Source: Planctomycetota bacterium
GTDB lineage: Bacteria; Planctomycetota; UBA1135; UBA2386
DNA length: 48,177 nucleotides
Reading direction: 5' to 3'
NCBI GenBank assembly: GCA_040375075.1
Contig: JBEITC010000001.1
Span: 1 to 48,177 of the forward strand
In this document: in pieces, positions 22,253 to 32,880 of the stretch
How positions within the stretch are numbered: the first letter of the stretch is position 1
Layout: each line of letters opens with the position of its first letter
The notes under the pieces: model-generated
Database searches by the model: none
Told to the model about the DNA's origin: nothing
The model's input: the letters and a program-made list of their open reading frames with translations, nothing else
Program-made: the position numbers and the translations under genes

Positions 22253-24661
22253 TCAGCCGCGCAGTTCCGCGCCGATCTGGCCGGCGTTCTCGCGGACCTT
22301 GCCGAGGAACTTCGCTTCGTCCTCGTCCGTGAGCGTGCGGTCGTCGGCGCCGAGCGTGACGGTGAAGTTGAGGCTCTTCTTGCCGGCTGGCAGGCGGTCG
22401 CCGCGGTAGGCCTCGAACAGTTGCACGTCGCGGACCAGCTTGCGACCGGTGGTGCGCAGGAACTCGGCGACCGCCGCGACCTGCACGGACTCGTCGACCA
22501 GCAGCGCGACGTCGACCGGCAGCGTCGGGAAGGTCGGCAGGGCCGCGTAGCGCGCGATCTTGCGCCCATTCACGAACAGCGCGCGCACGTCGAGGCACGC
22601 GATCGCCGTCGTCGCCGGCAGGTCGAGCGCGCGGGCCACCGCGGGATGCAGGCAGGCGACGTACCCGCACGGCGAGCCGTCGCGGTCGATGGCGACCGCG
22701 CGCGACGGATGCACCCAGGGCTGGTCGCTGCCGTGCCAGACGCGCTGCATGACGCCGGGGTAGCCGACGCGCTCGAGCAGCGAGCCCATGGCTTCGCGCA
22801 ACTCGAGGAACGGATGGGCGCCGTCGCGCCGCGCGAACACGAACGCGAGCTCGCGCACCTCGTGCGGCAGCTTGTGCTCGTCGCGCATCTCGGCGTGGTA
22901 GCCCTTGCCGTGTTCGCACAGGCGGACCTCGGCGGCGTGGCGGAGGTTCGGCGCGGCGCTGGCGAGCAGGCTCGGCAGCACGTGCCGACGGATGCGCGTC
23001 ACGTCGGGCGCGACCGGGTTCTGCACCTGCACGTACGCGTGGCCGCCAGCGCCGACGGCCTGCAGCACTGCGTCCGGCGTGAAGCTGTAGTTGTAGACCT
23101 CGCTGCAGCCGGTCTCGAGGCAGGCGACCTCGACCAGCCGCCGGGCGAGGAACAGCTCCTCGTTGCGCGGCGGCGGCGCGCTGGTGCCGTGCAGCGGCCG
23201 CTCGGGGATGTTGTCGTAGCGGTACATGCGCCCGACCTCCTCGATGAGGTCGTCCTCGATGGCGATGTCCTTGGTGGCGCGGAAGCTCGGCACGACGCAG
23301 TCGAAGCCGTCCTTCGTCGTGGTCACGCCGAACTGCAGCGAGCGCAGGATCGACGCGACCTTGTCGTCGTCGATGCGCACGCCCAGCTTGAGCAACAGGC
23401 GCGCGCGCCGCAGCGTCACCGTCTTCGGCGCGTACTGGAAGCCGAGCGGATCAACGAGCGGACCGGCGGCCTTCGCGGTCGGACACCAGCGCTGCAGCTC
23501 CGTCAGGTAGGCGTGCACGGCGAGTTCGGCGTTGGCCGGGTCCTGCGCCTTCTCGAAGCGCGCGCTCGCGTCGGTGCGGAGGCCCAAGCGCATGCTCGTG
23601 CGCCGGATCGTCGACGCGTGGAAGTTGGCCGACTCCAGGAACAGCGTCGTCGTGTCGGCGGCGACCATCGTGCCCGCCCCACCCATCACCCCGGCGAGCG
23701 CTTCCGGCCGCTGGTCGGCGCAGATCAGCAGGTCCTGGTCGTTCAGCTTGCGCGCGACGCCGTCCAGCGTCGTGATCGCCTCGCCGTTGCGGGCGCGGCG
23801 GACGCGCACCGGGCCGCTGCCGACATGGCGCGCGTCGAACGCGTGCATCGGCTGGCCGAGGTCGAGCATGACGAAGTTGGTGACGTCGACCGGCAACGAG
23901 ATCGCGCGCTGGCCGACCGCCGCGAGCTGCCAGCGCAGCGCGAGCGGCGACGGCCCGCTGGCCACGCCGTCGACGACGAGGCCGCAGTAGCGCGGGCAGC
24001 CCTGCTTGTCTTCGACGACGACGTCGACGCGGCGGCCCGTCGCGGGCAGCGGCAGCGGCGCGCACGCCGGCTTCAGTTCGCGGCCGTAGATGGCAGCCAG
24101 CTCGCGGGCGAAGCCGTAGTGGCCCCACAGGTCGGGCCGGTGATTGACCGACTTGTTGTCGATCTCGAACACCCAGTCCTGCACGTCGAAGCAGTCGACG
24201 AAGCGCTCGCCGATCGGCGCGTCGGACGGCAGCACGAGGATGCCGTCGTTCTCGCTCGACAGGCCGAGCTCGGCCTCCGAGCAGATCATGCCCTGCGACT
24301 CGACGCCGCGGATCTTGCCGACCTTGATCTTGAGCGCGCCCTTGCCGCCGCTCGCCGGGAGCGTGTCGCCCGGCTTGATGACGACGATGCGCTGACCGGC
24401 GGCGACGTTCGGGGCGCCGCAGACGATCTGCACGACGCCGCCCGCCTTGCCGAGGTCGACCTCGCAGACCGACAGCTTGTCGGCGTCCGGATGCTTCTCG
24501 CGCTTGCGCACGTGACCGATCACCAGCGGCTCGAGGCCGTCGCCGAAGCGGATCAGGCCGTCGATCTCGGCCGTGCTCATCGTCAGGTCGGCGAGGATGC
24601 GCTTGGGCTCGATGCCCGACAGGTCGACGTGGCGCTGCAGCCAACGCAGGGAGATCTTCAT
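22253..24661 (-). CDS. pheT: phenylalanine--tRNA ligase beta subunit
   Basis: Last 802 codons of ORF 22253..25342, starting MKISLRWLQRHVDLSGIEPKRILADLTMSTAEIDG. B3/4, B5 and anticodon-binding-like regions are present. The ATG at 24661 forms an ATGA overlap with the pheS stop. Confidence 0.95.
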   Translation of the reverse strand: MKISLRWLQRHVDLSGIEPKRILADLTMSTAEIDGLIRFGDGLEPLVIGHVRKREKHPDADKLSVCEVDLGKAGGVVQIVCGAPNVAAGQRIVVIKPGDTLPASGGKGALKIKVGKIRGVESQGMICSEAELGLSSENDGILVLPSDAPIGERFVDCFDVQDWVFEIDNKSVNHRPDLWGHYGFARELAAIYGRELKPACAPLPLPATGRRVDVVVEDKQGCPRYCGLVVDGVASGPSPLALRWQLAAVGQRAISLPVDVTNFVMLDLGQPMHAFDARHVGSGPVRVRRARNGEAITTLDGVARKLNDQDLLICADQRPEALAGVMGGAGTMVAADTTTLFLESANFHASTIRRTSMRLGLRTDASARFEKAQDPANAELAVHAYLTELQRWCPTAKAAGPLVDPLGFQYAPKTVTLRRARLLLKLGVRIDDDKVASILRSLQFGVTTTKDGFDCVVPSFRATKDIAIEDDLIEEVGRMYRYDNIPERPLHGTSAPPPRNEELFLARRLVEVACLETGCSEVYNYSFTPDAVLQAVGAGGHAYVQVQNPVAPDVTRIRRHVLPSLLASAAPNLRHAAEVRLCEHGKGYHAEMRDEHKLPHEVRELAFVFARRDGAHPFLELREAMGSLLERVGYPGVMQRVWHGSDQPWVHPSRAVAIDRDGSPCGYVACLHPAVARALDLPATTAIACLDVRALFVNGRKIARYAALPTFPTLPVDVALLVDESVQVAAVAEFLRTTGRKLVRDVQLFEAYRGDRLPAGKKSLNFTVTLGADDRTLTDEDEAKFLGKVRENAGQIGAELRG

Positions 24662-25716
24662 CGGCTCACCTCCGGGAACTGCGCGAGGAAGCGCTTGTCG
24701 CCGCCCATGAATTGACGGATGTCGTCGATGCCGTAGCGCAGCATGACCACGCGCTGCAGGCCCATGCCGAACGCGAAGCCGACGAACTCCTCGGGGTCGA
24801 GGCCGCCGGCGCGCAGGACGTTGGGATGCACCATGCCGCACGGCAGGATCTCGATCCAACCGGACTGCTTGCACACCGCGCAGCCCTGGCCCTTGCAGAA
24901 CGGGCAGTTGACGTCGAGTTCGAACCCCGGCTCGACGAACGGGAAGAAGCCGGGCCGCAGTCGCACCTGCACGTCGCGCTCGAGCACGACCCGCAGGCAC
25001 GTCTTCATGGTGTGGATCAGGTTGGCGATGCTGATGCCGCTGTCGCCGTGCGCGCGGTCCACCACCAGCCCTTCCATCTGGTAGAACGTGTGCTCGTGCG
25101 TTCGGTCGACGGTCTCGCTGCGGAACACGCGGCCAGGAACGATGACCTTGAGCGGCGGCTGGAAGCCCTGCTTGACCGCGCGCAGCAGCGTGCGCACCTG
25201 CACCGGCGACGTGTGCGTGCGCAGCAGGTTCTTGTCCGTCAGCCAGAAGGTGTCCTGGCTCTCGCGCGCCGGGTGGTCGCCCGGGATGTTCAGCGCGTCG
25301 AAGTTGAAGAACTCCGACTCGACCTCCGGGCCGTCCTGCCACTGGAAGCCAAGGCTCGTGAACAGGTCGACGAGCTCGTTCTGCACGATCGTGATCGGAT
25401 GCATCGTGCCGCGCGGCTTGCGCACGCCCGGCTCGGTCGGATCGAACGCAGCGCCATCGAGCTCGCGCGCCATCGCCGCGGCAGCGAACTGCTCCTTGCG
25501 CGATGCGATCGCAGCCTCGACCTCCTGCTTGATCGCGTTCGCCAGCTTGCCGAACGCCGGTCGCTCCTCCTTCGGCAACGACGTCACCGAGCGGACGAAC
25601 TCGACCACCTCGCCCTTGCCGCCGAACAGGCGCGCTTCGGCCTCGACGAGGGCGGCAGGGTCGGCGGCCGCGGCGACGGCGGCCAGCCAGCGATCACGTT
25701 GGGCTTGCGGATCCAT
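24658..25716 (-). CDS. pheS: phenylalanine--tRNA ligase alpha subunit
   Basis: 352 aa. Class II aaRS motifs are present (HPARESQDTFW; FRSETVDRTHEHTFYQMEG; GFAFGMGLQRVVMLRYGIDDIR). Confidence 0.95.
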   Translation of the reverse strand: MDPQAQRDRWLAAVAAAADPAALVEAEARLFGGKGEVVEFVRSVTSLPKEERPAFGKLANAIKQEVEAAIASRKEQFAAAAMARELDGAAFDPTEPGVRKPRGTMHPITIVQNELVDLFTSLGFQWQDGPEVESEFFNFDALNIPGDHPARESQDTFWLTDKNLLRTHTSPVQVRTLLRAVKQGFQPPLKVIVPGRVFRSETVDRTHEHTFYQMEGLVVDRAHGDSGISIANLIHTMKTCLRVVLERDVQVRLRPGFFPFVEPGFELDVNCPFCKGQGCAVCKQSGWIEILPCGMVHPNVLRAGGLDPEEFVGFAFGMGLQRVVMLRYGIDDIRQFMGGDKRFLAQFPEVSR

Positions 25717-25789
25717 GCGGGATGGCGGCGCTGCTGACCCGCCGCCGGGGCTGTGGGGATAGGTGCTGCGGGCGCTGGAAGTTCGCCCC

Positions 25790-25823
25790 GGAAAACGAAA
25801 CGGCGCTGGTCACTGCCAGCGCC
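25790..25823 (-). terminator. rho-independent terminator downstream of rplT
   Basis: On the minus strand: GGCGCUGG-CAGUGA-CCAGCGCC (8-bp GC stem, 6-nt loop, nt 25802-25823) followed by GUUUCGUUUUCC (25790-25801). It lies 49 nt after the rplT stop and 73 nt before the pheS ATG. Confidence 0.65.
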
Positions 25824-25871
25824 GCGTCGCGAATCGGAGATGCCGGACGCCGGAGCGCCCGGGACGCCGGC

Positions 25872-26228
25872 TCAGGCGAGAGCCTGCTTGGCCTTGCCGC
25901 AGATCGCCTCGAACGTCACCGGGTCCTTGATCGCCAGCTCGCTCAGTTCCTTGCGGTTGAGCTTGATGCCGGCCTTCTGGACGCCGTGGATGAACGCCGA
26001 GTAGCGCAGGCCGAAGCTCTTGACCGCGGCCGTGAGGCGCGTGATCCAGAGCGAGCGGAAGAAGCGCTTCTTCTGCTGGCGACCGGCGAAAGCGAACCGT
26101 TCGGCGCGAAGCACCGTGACGGTCGCCATCTTGAAGAGGTTGCGACGGCCTTGGCGGTAGCCCTTGGCCCGCTTCAGGAGACGATTGCGGCGCTGCCGCG
26201 TGGCAGGTCCGTTGGTTGCGCGACTCAT
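25872..26228 (-). CDS. rplT: 50S ribosomal protein L20
   Basis: 118 aa. RQRRNRLLKRAKGYRQGRRNLFK...RQQKKRFFRSLWITRLTAA is the canonical L20 sequence. Confidence 0.97.
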   Translation of the reverse strand: MSRATNGPATRQRRNRLLKRAKGYRQGRRNLFKMATVTVLRAERFAFAGRQQKKRFFRSLWITRLTAAVKSFGLRYSAFIHGVQKAGIKLNRKELSELAIKDPVTFEAICGKAKQALA

Positions 26229-26234
26229 TGCTGG

Positions 26235-26432
26235 TTACCTCCCGCCCAAGAGTTCCGCCATGTTGACGGCGATCTTGCCCTTGCAGAGGCCCTTCTGGCG
26301 CAGTTGGCGCTTCCGCTTGGAAGAGCGACGCACCAACAGGTGCGAAGTGTACGCGTGGCGGAACTTGACCTTGCCGGTCTTGGTCAGCTTCATGCGCTTG
26401 ACCACCGCCTTCTTGGTCTTCTGCTTCGTCAT
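26235..26432 (-). CDS. rpmI: 50S ribosomal protein L35
   Basis: 65 aa. MTKQKTKKAVVKRMKLTKTGKVKFRHAYTSHLL is canonical L35. It lies 6 nt upstream of rplT. Confidence 0.95.
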   Translation of the reverse strand: MTKQKTKKAVVKRMKLTKTGKVKFRHAYTSHLLVRRSSKRKRQLRQKGLCKGKIAVNMAELLGGR

Positions 26433-26616
26433 GGTCGGTCTGTCCGGTCGCCGAGGATCGTGCCGCGGGGCCGGTTCTCAGTCTTAGGAAGGGCGAGAAC
26501 GCTACCGGCAGAATCGACTTGCGCAAGTGCGGCCTGGGGAAAACTCTGGCGCTGGGGATCATTCCCCCCGACAACCGCTGCCACCGGGCTGCCCACGCCC
26601 GCGAACGCCACCCCTG

Positions 26617-27420
26617 ATGGACGCCCTGCTGACCTGCCTGCACCTCGCCGCCTACCTCGCAACCGCCTTGGGATTGGCCGAACCGCGCTGGCGCCGGGCC
26701 GCCATCGCCGCCCTGCTGGTCGCCGCCACAGCCGGCCTCGCAACCGGCCTGGGGGGAGACGAGCGCACCCTGACCACCGTGCACACGTACGCCGGCTTCG
26801 AGGGCATGCAGCAGGAGGTGTCGATGGTCAGCTTCCCCACCGGCACGGTGACCGCCCCCGGCTGGCAGTGGGCCGCCTGCTTCGCCGCCTTCGCGCTGGC
26901 ATGGGCGACGGCGCTCTGGACCCTGCGCGAGCGGCCGTTGCGCAGCCCGCTGGTGGCGCCGCTGCTGTTCGCCTGGAGCGCCACCGCGACCTGGCTCGCC
27001 ATGCAGGCCTGCGCCGCGCCCGCCGCGGTCGTGCAGCCCGTGGGTCTCGACCGCTTCCTATGGCCTGCCGGCCTTGCCTGCTCGCTGCTGGTCTGCCGCC
27101 GCGCCAAGACCTTTGGCGCGCTCTTCCTGCAGATGGGCCTCGCCGTGTCGCTCGCGCGCCTGCCGGCGGCGTTGTTCAGCAAGTACGCGAGCGACGGCCT
27201 GCTCGGCACGACGCTCGACGTCAGCAGCGTCCGCGACATCGTCAACCCGATGACGCAGATGCAGTTCGATCCGCGTCTGCAGCCCGGCTCGCCCGAGCAG
27301 CAGTTCTGGCTGATCTGGCTCGAGCACGTGCTGTTCTTTCCGGCGGTCCACATGATGAGCCTGTTCGGCATCGCCTTCGGCTTGTGGCTGTACTACCGCC
27401 ACGAAAACGATCCGGTCTGA
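26617..27420 (+). CDS. polytopic membrane protein of unknown function (267 aa); first gene of the sulfur-relay/MetE-like operon
   Basis: ORF 26527..27420 trimmed to MDALLTCLHLAAYLATALGL. The 26527 start is possible but would run into the rpmI upstream region. Six or seven hydrophobic segments. Its stop lies 7 nt before the next gene. Confidence 0.6.
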   Translation: MDALLTCLHLAAYLATALGLAEPRWRRAAIAALLVAATAGLATGLGGDERTLTTVHTYAGFEGMQQEVSMVSFPTGTVTAPGWQWAACFAAFALAWATALWTLRERPLRSPLVAPLLFAWSATATWLAMQACAAPAAVVQPVGLDRFLWPAGLACSLLVCRRAKTFGALFLQMGLAVSLARLPAALFSKYASDGLLGTTLDVSSVRDIVNPMTQMQFDPRLQPGSPEQQFWLIWLEHVLFFPAVHMMSLFGIAFGLWLYYRHENDPV

Positions 27421-27427
27421 GGCGCGC

Positions 27428-28060
27428 ATGACCGGCTTCGACGACTTCGCCGACGACGATCTCGGCCCGGCGGAACTGACGGCGCGCACCGAGGCACTGC
27501 GCGCGACGGTCGCTGCGATCGCCGCCGCGCCGTGCCGTCGCTGCGGCGGCCCGCTGTGCGGCCACGGCGCGCTGCTGGCGGTGCTGTTCGGCTGCAAGGA
27601 CGCCCCACGCTGCCCCGACTGCCTCGCCGCCGAGCACCGCGAACCCAAGGCGGAACTGGTCGCGCGTGCGAGCGAGTGGATTCGCCGCAAGGACTGCTTC
27701 CGGCACGTCTGGCATGCAGCCAGCGCGAGCGAGCACGGCGGCGAGATCGCCGTGCCACCGTGCCTTGGCGCCCCGCCCGCCGCGACGGCTGGCGCAGCGG
27801 CGACCATGACGGCGGCGGTCCCCGCGACGCCGACGGCGCCAGCGCCGGTCGCGACCTACGACGCTGGCGACCTCGGCTGCGGCGATCTCGTGCTGGAGCT
27901 GCGCAACACGCTGCGCGAACTCCGCCCTGGCGAGGTGCTGCGGGTGTTCGCGCGCGATCCCGCCGCGCCCGTCGACCTGCCGGCATGGTGCGGACTGACC
28001 GGGCACACGCTGGTGCATGCCGCGCATCCCGAGTACCACGTGCAGCGCAAGCAAGGCTGA
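27428..28060 (+). CDS. Cys-rich N-terminal domain fused to a TusA-like sulfur-carrier domain (210 aa)
   Basis: The C-terminal 75 aa, YDAGDLGCGDLVLELRNTLRELRPGEVLRVFARDPAAPVDLPAWCGLTGHTLV, are collinear with TusA/SirA (Cys loop, then D(I/L)PxxC). The N-terminus carries CRRCGGPLCGH...CKDAPRCPDC. Confidence 0.7.
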   Translation: MTGFDDFADDDLGPAELTARTEALRATVAAIAAAPCRRCGGPLCGHGALLAVLFGCKDAPRCPDCLAAEHREPKAELVARASEWIRRKDCFRHVWHAASASEHGGEIAVPPCLGAPPAATAGAAATMTAAVPATPTAPAPVATYDAGDLGCGDLVLELRNTLRELRPGEVLRVFARDPAAPVDLPAWCGLTGHTLVHAAHPEYHVQRKQG

Positions 28061-28066
28061 AACCCC

Positions 28067-28426
28067 ATGAAGAAGTTCTGCGTCACCCTCACTTCCGCCA
28101 AGAACGATCCCGACAAGGCCACCGTCGCCTTCGTCGTCGCCAACGCCGCCGCCGCCAGCGAGCAGGAGACGGTGATGTTCCTCAGCGTCGAGGCCGTGCG
28201 CCTCTGCCAGCAGGGCTACGCCGACGACATCGCCGAGGAAGGCTTCGCGCCGCTCAAGGACCTGATCGCCAACTTCGTCAAGGCGGGCGGCAAGGTCTGG
28301 GTCTGCTCGCCGTGCTTCAAGCGCCGCAAGCTCGACGAGTCGAAGCTCATTCCCGGCGCGACCATCGTCGGCGGCGCCAAGCTGGTCGAGTTCCTGTCGC
28401 AGGGCGCGCCCTGCGTCAGCTACTGA
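28067..28426 (+). CDS. DsrE/DsrF-like sulfur-relay family protein (119 aa)
   Basis: Size, the MKKFCVTLTS...ATVAFVVANAAAA start and GGKVWVCSPCFKRRKL...GATIVGGAKLVEF match the DsrE/TusD-type fold pattern. Confidence 0.75.
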   Translation: MKKFCVTLTSAKNDPDKATVAFVVANAAAASEQETVMFLSVEAVRLCQQGYADDIAEEGFAPLKDLIANFVKAGGKVWVCSPCFKRRKLDESKLIPGATIVGGAKLVEFLSQGAPCVSY

Positions 28427-28453
28427 GCCCCGCCTGACGACCGCAGCGCGGCG

Positions 28454-29182
28454 ATGACCGATCCGGACCTGTTCGACCGCGCCGACGCGACCTGCGACGG
28501 CGGCGACCTCGACTGCGGCAGCGGCCTGCTGCTGATCATCCGCAGCGCCTTCCAGCCGGTGCCGGCCGGCGGCTCGCTGCTGGTCAAGAGCCGCGAGACG
28601 TCGGTGCGCGAGGACCTGCCAGCGTGGTGCCGCCTCGTCGGCCACACGATCGAGGCCGAACGCGACGCCGAGAACGGCTACCGGCACTTCCTGCTGCGCA
28701 AGAAGGTCGACGACCAGGCCCTCGCCGGCGACCTGCAGAAGGCCCGCGCACACGTCTGGCAGACGCGCTCGCGCTGGACCGGCGGCATGCAGGCCAAGGC
28801 GACGATGCGCAACCACAGCGTCGCCATCGGCCAGCCGGCCAGCTTCGACACCGAGGACCAAGCGCCCTCGGCGATCGAACTGCTGCTCGCCGCCGTCGCC
28901 GGTGCCCTCACCACCGGCTTCCAGTGGCGGTTGTCGCAGAAGGGCGTCGAGGTGCACGACCTCGAGGTCGTCGCCAAGGCCCGCTCCGCCGACCCGCTGG
29001 TCTTCCTCGGCGTCGCCAACGACGGCAACCCGGGCCTCGCCGACGTCGACGTGACCGCGTACGTCAGCGCCAGCGGCGACGCCGACCTCGACGCCGAGTG
29101 GCGCGAGACGGTCCGCCGGTGTCCCGTCACCCAATCCCTGCTCCGCTCCGCCCCGGTGCGCACGACGCTGCGCGCCCTCTAG
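28454..29182 (+). CDS. TusA-like domain fused to an OsmC-family domain (242 aa)
   Basis: The N-terminus CDGGDLDCGSGLLLIIRSAFQPVPAGGSLLVKSRETSVREDLPAWCRLVGHTI is paralogous to the TusA-like domain of the 27428 gene. The C-terminal half (PSAIELLLAAVAGALTTGF...RRCPVTQSL) matches the OsmC/Ohr pattern. Confidence 0.8.
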   Translation: MTDPDLFDRADATCDGGDLDCGSGLLLIIRSAFQPVPAGGSLLVKSRETSVREDLPAWCRLVGHTIEAERDAENGYRHFLLRKKVDDQALAGDLQKARAHVWQTRSRWTGGMQAKATMRNHSVAIGQPASFDTEDQAPSAIELLLAAVAGALTTGFQWRLSQKGVEVHDLEVVAKARSADPLVFLGVANDGNPGLADVDVTAYVSASGDADLDAEWRETVRRCPVTQSLLRSAPVRTTLRAL

Positions 29183-29186
29183 ACTG

Positions 29187-30332
29187 ATGCGCCACCGCCC
29201 GATCCCCCGATTCCCCGTCAGCGTCGTCGGCAGTTGGCCTCGGCCCCGCTGGCTGCTCGAGGCGATGCGCAAGAAGGCCGCCGACCTGCCGGAGCTGCGC
29301 GACCAGGCGACGCTGCTGGCGATCAAGCAGCAGGAAGACGCAGGCGTCGACGTGCTGACCGACGGCGAGCAGCGCCGCGACAACTTCTACTCCTTCCTGA
29401 CCGAGAAGCTCGACGGCGTCGCACTGATGTCGATGGCCGATCTGCTCGACTACGTCGAGGACAAGGCGGCCTTCGAGGGCTTGCTGCAGGCGCTCGACGT
29501 GCCGGCCTTCGCGATCAAGAACCCCACCATCACCGGCCGCCTCGTCCGCCGCGAGCCGCTGGCGGTGCGCGAGGCGGAGTTCCTGCGCCGCCACACCACG
29601 CGCGCCACCAAGGTCGCGCTGCCGGGCCCGTACCTGCTGTCGCGTTCGATGTGGGTGCAGAAGCTGTCGTCGCAGGCCTACCCGACGCGCGAACTCCTTT
29701 GCGACGACATCGTCGCCATCCTGCGCGCCGAGTTGCAGGAGCTGGCGGACCTGGGCGTCGAGATCGTGCAGTTCGACGAGCCGGTGCTGACCGAGCTGGT
29801 GTTCGCCGGCAAGGCGGCGACGCGCACGTTCATGTGCGCCGCGCTCGCCGCCGCCGCGGACCCGGCGGCGGAGCTGGAGCTCGCCGTCACCCTGATGAAC
29901 CGCGTGACCGAGGGCATCCGCGGCGTGCGCACGGCGATGCACGTCTGCCGCGGCAACTGGAGCCGCAACGAGGACGTGCTGCTGGCCGGCGACTACGCGC
30001 CGCTGCTGCCGCACCTCGCGCGCATGCAGGTCGACCAGTTCGTGCTCGAGTACGCGACGCCGCGCGCCGGCCCCGAGGCGCTGTTGGCCCAGCTGCCGGC
30101 CCGCGCCAGCGTCGGCTTCGGCGCCGTCAACCCGCGCACCGAGCCCGACGAGGATCCGGCGGCGATCGCCGCGCGCGTCGGCAAGCTGGCCGAACTGCTC
30201 GGCCCGGACCGCATCTGGCTGAATCCGGACTGCGGCTTCGGCACCTTCGCCGAGCGGCCCGTGGCCACCGGCGCCGTGGCCGAGCGCAAGTGCGCGATCC
30301 TGGCCGAGGCGGCGCGCCTGCTGCGCGCCTGA
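29187..30332 (+). CDS. short cobalamin-independent methionine-synthase-like protein (MetE C-terminal/Meth_synt_2 type, 381 aa)
   Basis: VVGSWPRPRWL N-terminal motif and TDGEQRRDNF. The zinc ligand pattern is conserved: H-x-C in AMHVCRGNW (nt 29940-29948) and C in NPDCGFG (nt 30231-30233). Confidence 0.85.
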   Translation: MRHRPIPRFPVSVVGSWPRPRWLLEAMRKKAADLPELRDQATLLAIKQQEDAGVDVLTDGEQRRDNFYSFLTEKLDGVALMSMADLLDYVEDKAAFEGLLQALDVPAFAIKNPTITGRLVRREPLAVREAEFLRRHTTRATKVALPGPYLLSRSMWVQKLSSQAYPTRELLCDDIVAILRAELQELADLGVEIVQFDEPVLTELVFAGKAATRTFMCAALAAAADPAAELELAVTLMNRVTEGIRGVRTAMHVCRGNWSRNEDVLLAGDYAPLLPHLARMQVDQFVLEYATPRAGPEALLAQLPARASVGFGAVNPRTEPDEDPAAIAARVGKLAELLGPDRIWLNPDCGFGTFAERPVATGAVAERKCAILAEAARLLRA

Positions 30333-30333
30333 T

Positions 30334-30372
30334 CGCGCCGGCGCGGGACCGGCCAGCGCCAGCGCCGGCGCG
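30334..30372. terminator. 11-bp GC hairpin between convergent genes (possible bidirectional terminator)
   Basis: cgcgccggcgc (30334-30344) and gcgccggcgcg (30362-30372) are exact reverse complements separated by a 17-nt loop. There is no U tract, and the arms are themselves near-palindromic, so support is weak. Confidence 0.3.
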
Positions 30373-30374
30373 GC

Positions 30375-32192
30375 TCAGCCGGCCTTCTTGAGCGCCGTCG
30401 CCGGCTTGGCGGCGGCCTTCTTCGCCGCCGCGCCCTGCTCCAGCTCGTCGGCGAGCTTGCCGGCGCCGTACACCTTGCGCAGCGACTCGACGATGATCGC
30501 CGGGTGCACGCTGACCGAGCGGGCGACCTCGTCGTCGAAGACGAAGTTGTTGCCCAGCGACTCGATGTTGCCGTCGAAGATCAGGCCGACGACGTTGAGG
30601 TCGCGGTCGATGACCGGCGAGCCCGAGTTGCCGCCGATGATGTCGCAGGTCGACACGAAGTTGAACGGCGTGCGCAGGTCCATCGCCTTCTCCGCCGCGA
30701 GCCACGGCTGCGGCAGGTCGAACGGATAGCGGCCGCCGAACTCGTGGTGCCGCGCGAACAGGCCGTACAGCGACGTCTGGTGCGGCGCGACCGTGCCGTT
30801 CATCTCGTAGCCCTTCACGACGCCGTCGCTGATGCGCAGCGACATCGTCGCGTCCGCCGGGATCGAGTTGCCGTAGACGGCGAAGCAGGCCTCGCCGATG
30901 CGCTTGGCCTGGGCGGCCTCGGCCCTCGCGAGCTCCTGCAGCTTCTTCACGTCCGGCTTCTCCTGCTGCATCGCCGCGACCTTCTCCGCCTGCAGCGCGG
31001 CGACCTTGTCCCAGGCGTCGCCGTACTTGGCGAGCAGATCGGCGTTCTTCGCGACGAGGCCGCGCAGCTGCGCCTCGGCCTTCTGCTTGATCGCCATGAT
31101 GCGCGGGTCGAGCAGGCCGTCGCGGTAACCCTCGACCGCCTTGCGGGTGTTCTCGAGCGAGAGGATCTGCGCCCGCAGTTCCTTCTCCTTCGCGGGGCTC
31201 GCCTTGGCCTGCGCGTAGAGGTCCTGCAGCTGCGCCTTCGTCTGCGCGAGGCGCGTCGGGAAGCTCACGTCGCGCAGGAACTCGCACTGCGCCACCGTCT
31301 GCAGGCGGCCGGTGCGGCCCGGATTGCCCGTCACGAACACGAGGTCGCCCTCGGGCGCGCCGCTGGTCTTCCAGGCGAAGTGGTTGGCGCCGCTGTCGAC
31401 CGGCTTGTCGCCCTGCCAGGCGCGCACGAACGTGAAGTCGAGGCCCCAGCGCGGGAAGCAGAAGTTGTCCGGGTCGCCGCCGAAGTGCGCGACCTGGCCG
31501 TGCGGCGCGCAGACGAGGCGCAGGTCGTCGTAGACCTGGAAGCTGTAGAGCTGGTAGTTGCCGCCCTGGTAGAGCGCGATGACCTCGTGCTCATGCGCCG
31601 GATCCTGCTCGGCGGCGGCCTTCTTGACCGCGTCGAGGCCCTGCGCGTTGACCGCGGCGGTGACGTCCTGCTGGCGCACCAGCTGGGTCATGCGGAAGCC
31701 GGGCAGCTTGACCTCGTTCTCGAAGGCGCCGGCGTAGTAGCCGTCCTTGAGCCAGTCGGCCGCGCCCTGCACCGAGGCGATGGCGTCGCGGGCGCAGTGG
31801 TGGTTCGTCATCACCAGGCCGTACGGGCTGACGAACGAGGCCGAGCAGAAGTTGCGGATCGAGCCGTCTTCCATCTTGCGACCAAAGCGCAGCGAGCTGA
31901 GGCGCGCCTGCGCCAGCCACTCCTCGGTCGGCTGCCAGTCGTACGCCTGCTGGAACCAGCCGACCGGCGCGGCCTCGAAGGTCCACATGCGGCCGAGGTC
32001 CTTGTTCGGCTGCTCGACCATGGGCAGCGACGGCATCGACGCCGGCGGCGGCGGCTCGGCCGGCGCGGGCGAAGCGCCTTCGGCGCGGTCCGGCGCGCCG
32101 CTGCAGGCGGCGAGCGCGACGAGGAGCCAGGGGGCGATGGCCGCACGGCGCGCGGCCACGGGGAGAGCGGTACGGAGGCGTTCGGGCTTCAT
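30375..32192 (-). CDS. S46 family serine peptidase (dipeptidyl-peptidase 7/11-like), lipoprotein signal
   Basis: Frame 30375..32684 trimmed to MKPERLRTALPVAARRAAIAPWLLVALAACSG. GRMWTFEAAP, CSASFVSPYGLVMTNHHCARD (catalytic His) and IIGGNSGSPVID (catalytic Ser) are characteristic of S46. Confidence 0.85.
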   Translation of the reverse strand: MKPERLRTALPVAARRAAIAPWLLVALAACSGAPDRAEGASPAPAEPPPPASMPSLPMVEQPNKDLGRMWTFEAAPVGWFQQAYDWQPTEEWLAQARLSSLRFGRKMEDGSIRNFCSASFVSPYGLVMTNHHCARDAIASVQGAADWLKDGYYAGAFENEVKLPGFRMTQLVRQQDVTAAVNAQGLDAVKKAAAEQDPAHEHEVIALYQGGNYQLYSFQVYDDLRLVCAPHGQVAHFGGDPDNFCFPRWGLDFTFVRAWQGDKPVDSGANHFAWKTSGAPEGDLVFVTGNPGRTGRLQTVAQCEFLRDVSFPTRLAQTKAQLQDLYAQAKASPAKEKELRAQILSLENTRKAVEGYRDGLLDPRIMAIKQKAEAQLRGLVAKNADLLAKYGDAWDKVAALQAEKVAAMQQEKPDVKKLQELARAEAAQAKRIGEACFAVYGNSIPADATMSLRISDGVVKGYEMNGTVAPHQTSLYGLFARHHEFGGRYPFDLPQPWLAAEKAMDLRTPFNFVSTCDIIGGNSGSPVIDRDLNVVGLIFDGNIESLGNNFVFDDEVARSVSVHPAIIVESLRKVYGAGKLADELEQGAAAKKAAAKPATALKKAG

Positions 32193-32331
32193 GGTTCTCG
32201 GTCGGCGGATCCTACGCCGAAGGACGCAGTGCTTCCCCCTCCATGCCGGAGATCCCGCACGCACGGATCCCCGGCCGCTTCCGCACCTCGGCCCAGGGAC
32301 GAATCGAGCGCGCTCGCTAGGTTGCGCGTCC

Positions 32332-32880
32332 ATGACTGCCACCAGCCCGGCCGCCATTGCCACCGAGGATCCGATCGGCATCCTGCTGACCGAGCACCGC
32401 ACCATCCTGCAGGTGCTCTCCGAGGCCGATCGCGAACGAGCCCGCCTCGAGCAGACCGGCATCCTGCGCACGACGCTGTGGCATGAGGTGCTGTGCTTCC
32501 TGCGCGACTTCGACCACGGCATCCACCACCAGAAGGAGGATCGGTTGCTGTTCAGCGAACTCGAAGGCTGCGGCCTCAGCGTCCACAACGGGCCGACCTC
32601 CGTGCTGCGCGACGAGCACCGGCGCATGGAGCACTGGCAAGGCCGCCTGGAGCACGCCGTGGCCCATCGGGACGCGCCGCGCATCGCCGCCGCCGCGGCG
32701 AGCTACTGCGACCTCGCGCGCACGCACATCCTGAAGGAGAACCAGATCGTGTTCCCGCTGGCGCGCCGCCTGCTGGCCCCCACCCAGATCTCGCTGCTGC
32801 AGACCGAGTTCGCGCCGATCGACGCCGACCTGCGCGTCGACCGCTGGCTGCCGAGCCTGGCCCAATCGTTCGACGTCTGA
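32332..32880 (+). CDS. hemerythrin-like (HHE cation-binding) domain protein (182 aa)
   Basis: Last 182 codons of ORF 31747..32880, starting MTATSPAAIATEDPIGILLTEHR. Contains HHQKEDRLLFSELE and HILKENQIVFPLA motifs. Confidence 0.8.
   Translation: MTATSPAAIATEDPIGILLTEHRTILQVLSEADRERARLEQTGILRTTLWHEVLCFLRDFDHGIHHQKEDRLLFSELEGCGLSVHNGPTSVLRDEHRRMEHWQGRLEHAVAHRDAPRIAAAAASYCDLARTHILKENQIVFPLARRLLAPTQISLLQTEFAPIDADLRVDRWLPSLAQSFDV

Follow-up and report, generated by a model that had tools for sequence, protein, structure and literature searches.

In enzymes of the MetE fold, zinc activates a thiolate, and proteins of the TusA and DsrE families carry sulfane sulfur on cysteines. The described systems closest to the locus reported here are the core methionine synthase MesD with its partner MesX (Price et al. 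2021, PMC7857596), the TusA-TusBCD (DsrEFH)-TusE relay together with the DsrE3/TusA thiosulfate carriers, and YedF (TIGR03527), a fusion of a TusA-like and a DsrE-like protein with a CGxC motif that has been linked to SelD and to selenium use (Lin et al. 2015, PMC5322559). We analyzed a stretch of 48,177 nucleotides (nt), here called the window, from a freshwater Planctomycetota metagenome-assembled genome (MAG) that is 89% complete (GenBank assembly GCA_040375075.1, contig JBEITC010000001.1, positions 1 to 48,177 of the forward strand). At 27428-30332 on the plus strand it carries four consecutive genes, which we call the cassette: these encode a long TusA-like carrier (TusA1), a DsrE-like carrier, a TusA-like/OsmC-like fusion, and a short, MetE-like zinc enzyme.

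Each of the four folds is familiar. What the literature we searched does not describe is their fixed combination, or a MetE fold with a loop that carries cysteine or selenocysteine (Sec): Full-text searches returned no paper on this gene set, in keeping with the earlier note on this DNA (made from the sequence alone), which had recognized no characterized pathway in it. There is also no dedicated model for the cassette proteins in NCBIfam release 20. In the explanation we favor, to which we give about an even chance of being right, the loop Cys/Sec would receive sulfur, selenium, or disulfide equivalents from the carriers and act on a substrate that resembles homocysteine and is bound to zinc.

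Conservation of the four-gene cassette

The earlier note had read the locus as an operon of five plus-strand genes separated by 7, 6, 27, and 4 nt. The coordinates of the open reading frames (ORFs; 26617-30332) agree with this layout, and the domains that it had named (TusA, DsrE, TusA/OsmC, and MetE-type) are recovered by Pfam and NCBIfam and by a match to a TusA structure in the PDB. The last four genes are indeed conserved together, in 79 of 80 loci; the first, a membrane protein gene, adjoins them in only two. The cassette thus comprises TusA1 (27428..28060, plus strand; 210 amino acids [aa], Pfam TusA at aa 143-198 with 37.9 bits), the DsrE-like carrier (28067..28426, plus strand; 119 aa, Pfam DsrE with 60.4 bits), the TusA-like/OsmC-like fusion (28454..29182, plus strand; 242 aa, Pfam OsmC at aa 134-237 with 43.9 bits), and the core MetE-like zinc enzyme (29187..30332, plus strand; 381 aa, Pfam Meth_synt_2 with 87.4 bits).

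A scan of one genome per species, with the TusA/OsmC fusion alone as the query, places the fusion protein in at least 555 species. The locus counts that follow are based on the 80 best loci, again retrieved by the fusion protein only. These come from Planctomycetota, Methylomirabilota (NC10), Acidobacteriota, Actinomycetota, Verrucomicrobiota, Nitrospinota, Poribacteria, Myxococcota, and Dormiibacterota, and they include Candidatus (Ca.) Brocadia. A MetE-like gene is found in 79 of the 80 loci, directly adjacent to the fusion gene in 70. Among the 76 loci with room upstream, all have the DsrE gene and 74 a separate TusA gene. The canonical gene order is kept in 63 of 80 loci, and where it is broken (for example, in L031, L048, L072, L073, L087, and L090), the genes still lie within a few kilobases of one another. 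Three homologs of the MetE-like enzyme (67%-83% identity) have unrelated contig flanks, and each is preceded by TusA, DsrE, and TusA/OsmC genes. Genes 2-5 of the locus are one functional unit, far beyond a chance arrangement.

Two loci deserve separate mention. The sole locus in which no MetE-like gene follows the fusion is that of a Ca. Sulfotelmatobacter MAG, whose contig ends soon after; the 194-aa product encoded there instead, at L030:6727-7311, has a C-P-P-C motif like that of DsrE and a signal-like stretch at its N terminus. In a Nitrospinota MAG the MetE-like gene is split into two overlapping frames (L026:7454-7536), probably by a frameshift or an assembly error.

The distribution of the cassette is patchy. 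It occurs in 18 of 201 Planctomycetota sampled and in three of 151 Acidobacteriota, and it was not found in a genome of the same genus as ours (94% complete). The groups that carry it matter in the environment and are mostly uncultured; they include Planctomycetota, Acidobacteriota, NC10, anammox bacteria, Nitrospinota, and the Poribacteria of sponges.

The MetE-like enzyme and its loop with cysteine or predicted selenocysteine

The product of gene 5 scores below every NCBIfam methionine-synthase equivalog cut-off. The best match is PRK04326, with 144 bits against a cut-off of 406, and the MetE equivalogs give only 64-68 bits against cut-offs of 541-930. At 63.8 bits to TIGR01371 (cut-off 930) and 381 aa, without the N-terminal folate-binding barrel, the protein is not a full-length MetE. 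Nor does it fall within MesD: It scores 90 bits against the solved MesD structure 3RPD and 115 bits against PRK09121 (cut-off 392). The threshold that Price et al. set for MesD is at least 390 bits to ACIAD3523 (PMC7857596). We find no DUF1852 (MesX) gene among the neighbors scanned in the window or listed in the fetched loci, and no corrinoid gene, the context expected for MesA, MesB, and MesC, within the cassette.

By both sequence and fold, the nearest solved relative is nevertheless MesD 3RPD, followed by the C-terminal barrels of MetE and the YxjG-like structure 1YPX. An AlphaFold2 model of the protein has a predicted local distance difference test score (pLDDT) of 87 and a predicted template modeling (TM) score of 0.90, and its best Foldseek match is 3RPD, with a TM score of 0.74 to 0.82. 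We assigned functional residues by alignment to 3RPD, read against the residue list in PMC7857596. Ser16, Glu61, and Asp197 align to Ser22, Glu73, and Asp188 of 3RPD, which bind homocysteine and correspond to S433, E484, and D599 of the Escherichia coli enzyme (PMC7857596); His252, Cys254, Glu288, and Cys349 align to the zinc ligands of 3RPD and of MetE. All seven residues are invariant (39 to 77 orthologs). The zinc motifs pointed out in the earlier note, AMHVCRGNW and NPDCGFG, are present as given, and both of their cysteines are invariant in 77 orthologs. Judged from the sequence and the predicted structure, the protein is a short MetE-type zinc protein with a (beta-alpha)8 fold and no folate-binding domain. 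The same genome encodes a second core MetE-like paralog (G000:C480, L002:1357-2559, minus strand; 400 aa, 24% identical), in which the zinc ligands are present, the Cys217 loop is absent, and Asp stands at the position aligned to Glu61.

The earlier note had listed the zinc site and missed a further feature, a loop that carries Cys217. Directly after the DEP strand, there is a family-specific stretch with the motif TFMC that does not align to 3RPD. The loop (aa 207-225; 29805..29861, plus strand; Cys217 codon at 29835-29837) is the only low-confidence part of the AlphaFold2 model, with pLDDT <50 at aa 209-214 and 218-222, which fits a mobile loop.

Cys217 is found in 73 of 77 orthologs, and the other four (L042, L068, L078, and L079) have an in-frame TGA at this codon, after which the frame runs on through HVCRGNW, LEYATPRAG, and NPDCGFG to full length. 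With the N-terminal 216 residues as the query, many database proteins of 210-219 aa were returned, and all 10 that we inspected end in ...THTFM. For four of these truncated proteins, the locus has TGA at this point, and the rest of the protein follows in frame as an ORF that was called separately; the full cassette lies upstream. Eight loci in total thus have TGA at the Cys217 column with a full downstream frame after it. SelA is present in all four TGA-bearing genomes searched, and there is a small hairpin 20-40 nt after the TGA. With these features, which are those expected of a selenoprotein gene, the TGA of the sister clade is predicted to be read as Sec. As a rule, a position at which Cys and Sec replace one another is a catalytic nucleophile or a redox residue. 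The families in a 2026 review of prokaryotic selenoproteins include DsrE-like and OsmC-like ones and no methionine-synthase-like one (PMC13188914); the Sec-bearing clade would add a selenoprotein family that is absent from that catalog.

Carrier proteins and neighboring genes

Each carrier has a conserved pair of cysteines. In TusA1 these are Cys151 (codon 27878-27880) in the loop CGDL, present in 81 of 81 sequences, and Cys188 (codon 27989-27991) in the motif DLPAWC, present in 80 of 81. In the TusA domain of the fusion, Cys21 (28514-28516, loop CGSG) and Cys59 (28628-28630, DLPAWC) are found in all 81 sequences. This domain scores 21 bits with Pfam (PF01206), under the cut-off that TusA1 exceeds, and the NCBIfam TusA model and the PDB TusA structure 3LVJ (E = 2e-4) concur in the assignment. 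In TusA proteins the active-site Cys belongs to a CPxP motif at the N-terminal end of helix 1. The earlier note was right that both TusA-like domains share DLPAWC and that a Cys-Gly loop replaces CPxP in both, and the loop cysteines on which its proposal of a sulfur relay depends are conserved; the consensus that it gave for the loops, CG(D/S)G, holds only for the second, since the first reads CGDL.

TusA1 also has a Cys-rich N-terminal extension (aa 1-135, 27428-27832), which matches no Pfam family. Its cysteines C36, C39, C62, C65, and C90 form a pattern of CxxC...CxxC plus Cys90, kept in 36 loci, the window included, and the extension may be a metal-binding module.

In the DsrE-like carrier, the motif is C80-S-P-C83 (codons 28304-28306 and 28313-28315). 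C80 is present in 78 of 78 sequences and C83 in 77. By sequence, the protein has both the fold and the conserved active-site cysteine of DsrE/TusD proteins (PF02635), with C83 in addition. In the one remaining sequence, from an Acidobacteria MAG, the codon of the second cysteine is an in-frame TGA (L054:2385-2387), which would give CxxU; this single case may be a sequencing error. The published DsrE-like selenoprotein has UxxC.

The OsmC domain of the window's fusion protein has a single cysteine, Cys223 (29120-29122). Among 81 members of the family, 55 have a cysteine only at position 151, the first canonical site; 19, the clade of the window, only at position 223, the second; and seven have none, with Asp or Glu instead. 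OsmC/Ohr peroxidases (PF02566) have two catalytic cysteines, one peroxidatic and the other resolving, and none of the 81 has both. Because of this, the domain, as far as its residues indicate, is not a canonical two-cysteine OsmC/Ohr peroxidase.

Gene 1 of the locus (26617..27420, plus strand; 267 aa from ATG, with an upstream GTG at 26527 as another possible start) encodes a polytopic membrane protein with six to seven hydrophobic segments. It has no family match in Pfam or NCBIfam, and an Atlas search gave no informative match. Its homologs adjoin the cassette only in our closest relatives among the 80 loci (L011 and L012) and are displaced about 2.7 kilobases upstream in L014 and L018; for this reason, we regard it as a lineage-specific neighbor outside the conserved cassette. 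The flanking genes are ordinary ones. The upstream flank is divergent (22253-26432, minus strand); Pfam identifies L35 and L20 genes there, and the next ORFs look like pheS and pheT. The downstream flank is convergent (30375-32684, minus strand), with a peptidase S46 gene by Pfam. The G+C content of the window is 70%-73%.

In 43 of 80 loci, from several phyla, an exported transglutaminase-like gene lies directly upstream of the cassette (for example, L042:3561-4685, L094:1-960, L096:82-1242, and L097:116-1276). The product matches PF01841; it carries a signal or lipoprotein peptide, and its Cys and His motifs are conserved. No such partner was found in the window or in its genome (89% complete).

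No riboswitches or other Rfam elements, S-adenosylmethionine (SAM) and cobalamin riboswitches included, were found in the 15 loci searched, which are the window and 14 related ones and come from nine phyla, and so there is no regulatory clue from this source. A promoter and terminator scan of 26200-30600 detected nothing. Contigs of a freshwater-sediment metatranscriptome that are ∼94% identical, from a relative, span the DsrE gene and the start of the fusion gene; they are weak support for transcription and are too short for an operon transcript.

Possible functions of the cassette and comparison with known systems

In the explanation that we favor, the MetE-fold enzyme would bind a homocysteine-shaped L-amino acid at its intact zinc site, and the flexible loop beside that site would present a reactive Cys217 (Sec in the sister clade). 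TusA1, the DsrE-like protein with its CxxC, and the TusA domain of the fusion, each with an invariant Cys pair, would form a relay to or from the loop residue for sulfane sulfur, selenium, or thiol-disulfide equivalents. The loop residue would in turn form or cleave a chalcogen bond to the substrate's sulfur or selenium on the zinc. The observations behind this are the co-conservation of the four genes, the intact zinc and amino-acid-binding residues, the exchange of Cys and TGA in the loop, the Cys pairs of the carriers, and the coexistence of other methionine and homocysteine enzymes in the same genomes. That the carriers dock on this loop, which way the transfer would run, what the substrate would be, and that the step would be other than a plain methyl transfer are inferences. 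The data point to a chemistry of the sulfur or selenium kind rather than to ordinary methionine synthesis, in which case the MetE fold would have been recruited for sulfur or selenium transfer.

Several observations weigh against this explanation. A genuine methionine synthase would equally keep all of the homocysteine and zinc residues. The window's own codon at position 217 is TGC, for Cys and not Sec. The hairpin after the TGA of the sister clade, which resembles a Sec insertion sequence, is small and shows no compensatory pair among seven sequences, and its fold z-scores are not significant. Finally, 50 of 52 cassette genomes have SelA, as do all 18 Planctomycetota in the sample that carry the cassette, against a background of 148 of 201 Planctomycetota (74%) and 121 of 151 Acidobacteriota (80%); this is only a weak enrichment for the Sec trait, and the genomes are not independent.

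The best-surviving alternative, which is somewhat unlikely but a serious contender, is that the enzyme belongs to a fifth "core" methionine synthase family, with carriers that play the part of MesX by supplying or activating a non-folate methyl donor or by reactivating an oxidized loop Cys/Sec. The number of folate-independent families would then rise to five, and this one would have a partner of a new kind. The conservation of all homocysteine and zinc residues is as expected under this view, as is the position of MesD 3RPD as the nearest solved structure, and MesD provides a precedent for a core enzyme that requires an uncharacterized partner (PMC7857596). In Ca. Brocadia sapporoensis, moreover, the cassette enzyme is the only match to PF01717, the MetE-like family, and we found no MetH domain. 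However, only three of 41 genomes of the Brocadia order have the cassette. Because the other 38 do without it, the order must have another route to methionine, and we do not count this species as evidence for a methionine synthase.

Most cassette genomes also have MetH, full-length MetE, or a paralog that is closer to methionine-synthase models. Our own genome has MetH domains. Of the 50 cassette genomes searched for the MetH activation domain, 35 have it. Among the 15 without it, seven have the homocysteine-binding domain PF02574 and two a full-length MetE, and the remaining Acidobacteriota and Verrucomicrobiota have six to 10 PF01717 paralogs each; in one genome examined per group, such paralogs score 304-309 bits to PRK04326, compared with 144 for the cassette enzyme. 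An expansion of PF01717 is in itself a striking feature of seven Acidobacteriota and Dormiibacterota cassette genomes (G024, G025, G026, G029, G032, G048, and G049), which have eight to 11 separate genes of this family.

Three further points speak against a core synthase. The 15 loci of nine phyla have no SAM or cobalamin riboswitch; the cassette includes no corrinoid or other methyl-carrier partner; and Sec/Cys exchange is typical of residues in redox or chalcogen transfer and not of methyl transfer to a zinc thiolate. Since other methionine and homocysteine enzymes coexist with it, since its distribution is patchy, and since no SAM or B12 riboswitch was found, the evidence points to the cassette being an accessory module rather than part of housekeeping methionine synthesis, with which an alternative isozyme is still compatible. 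Either way, the automatic label "cobalamin-independent methionine synthase" that thousands of database entries carry is unverified.

It is possible, although we consider it improbable, that the MetE-fold enzyme is not a methyltransferase at all but a chalcogen-mobilizing enzyme independent of pyridoxal phosphate (PLP). The loop Cys/Sec would hand terminal sulfur or selenium to the TusA/DsrE relay or, in reverse, build homocysteine or selenohomocysteine. The pocket would then hold on zinc an amino acid with terminal sulfur or selenium, such as cysteine persulfide or selenopersulfide, whose chain is as long as that of homocysteine. If true, more than 500 species, most of them uncultured, would have a new route of sulfur or selenium traffic.

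Another proposal, a relay-dependent homocysteine synthase without PLP or its selenium counterpart, strikes us as quite doubtful. A persulfide would form on Cys217, its zinc-activated terminal sulfur would attack an activated homoserine held in the Ser/Glu/Asp triad, and a carrier thiol would free homocysteine. Such a scheme gives TusA and DsrE their established role, accounts for the amino-acid-binding triad and for the missing methyl-donor partner, and explains the coexistence of MetH or MetE, which would be downstream rather than redundant enzymes. It is purely inferred, however, and we know of no relay-fed homocysteine-synthase chemistry for the MetE fold. PLP-dependent Cys/Met enzymes (PF01053) are already present in 48 of 52 cassette genomes, our own included. 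The four genomes without PF01053 would favor the scheme; on the whole, the family does not discriminate.

Still less credible is a peroxide-stress module, in which OsmC would be a thiol peroxidase and the carriers would protect a methionine synthase that is sensitive to oxidation, or repair it. In its favor are the OsmC fold and the Cys-rich nature of every component. Yet no member has both catalytic cysteines, the single one alternates between the two positions, and seven of 81 have none; three dedicated carriers are also many for a role in repair. The earlier note had described OsmC proteins as thiol peroxidases; the domain here is not a canonical one, and this weakens the note's idea that the relay protects the enzyme. 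That the genes are unrelated neighbors brought together by chance can be dismissed with near certainty, since 79 of 80 loci, spread over nine phyla and set in unrelated flanks, keep the set, and local rearrangements have not broken it up.

Among known proteins, OsmC/Ohr peroxidases share with the cassette the fold of the C-terminal domain of the fusion (Pfam OsmC, 43.9 bits); canonical members need two cysteines, whereas the cassette family has one at either position, or none. YedF has the same two folds as the carriers and a CxxC-type DsrE motif (CGxC), and it occurs in selenium-using organisms, a parallel only and not a test. Here, in contrast, the two are separate genes, neither protein matches the YedF model, and the window has no SelD neighborhood.

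The MetE proteins of E. coli and Thermotoga maritima have the same catalytic barrel at the C terminus as the cassette enzyme and the same seven functional residues; the cassette enzyme differs in its lack of the N-terminal folate barrel, in its scores (64-68 bits against cut-offs of 541-930), and in the added Cys/Sec loop. Another comparison is with MesD/MesX (Price et al. 2021, PMC7857596; 3RPD). MesD is also a short MetE-fold zinc enzyme without a folate-binding domain, with the same zinc and homocysteine residues and with its gene beside an obligatory-looking partner of uncharacterized role, and it is the best match in sequence and fold. The identity is only ∼24%-25%, however, with 90 bits to 3RPD. 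The partner here consists of three cysteine carriers, where MesX is a DUF1852 protein; the extra loop Cys/Sec is not shown for MesD; and the cassette is also found in anaerobes (anammox bacteria), whereas MesD needs oxygen.

Like the TusA-TusBCD (DsrEFH)-TusE relay and the DsrE3/TusA thiosulfate carriers, the cassette encodes proteins of the TusA and DsrE folds with conserved cysteines together, in the service of a downstream enzyme. It differs from them in the loops, which are CG(D/S)x instead of CPxP; in the second invariant cysteine of each carrier; in the CxxC of its DsrE protein (putatively CxxU in one relative); and in the proposed acceptor, which would be a MetE-fold enzyme in place of a tRNA thiolase or DsrC.

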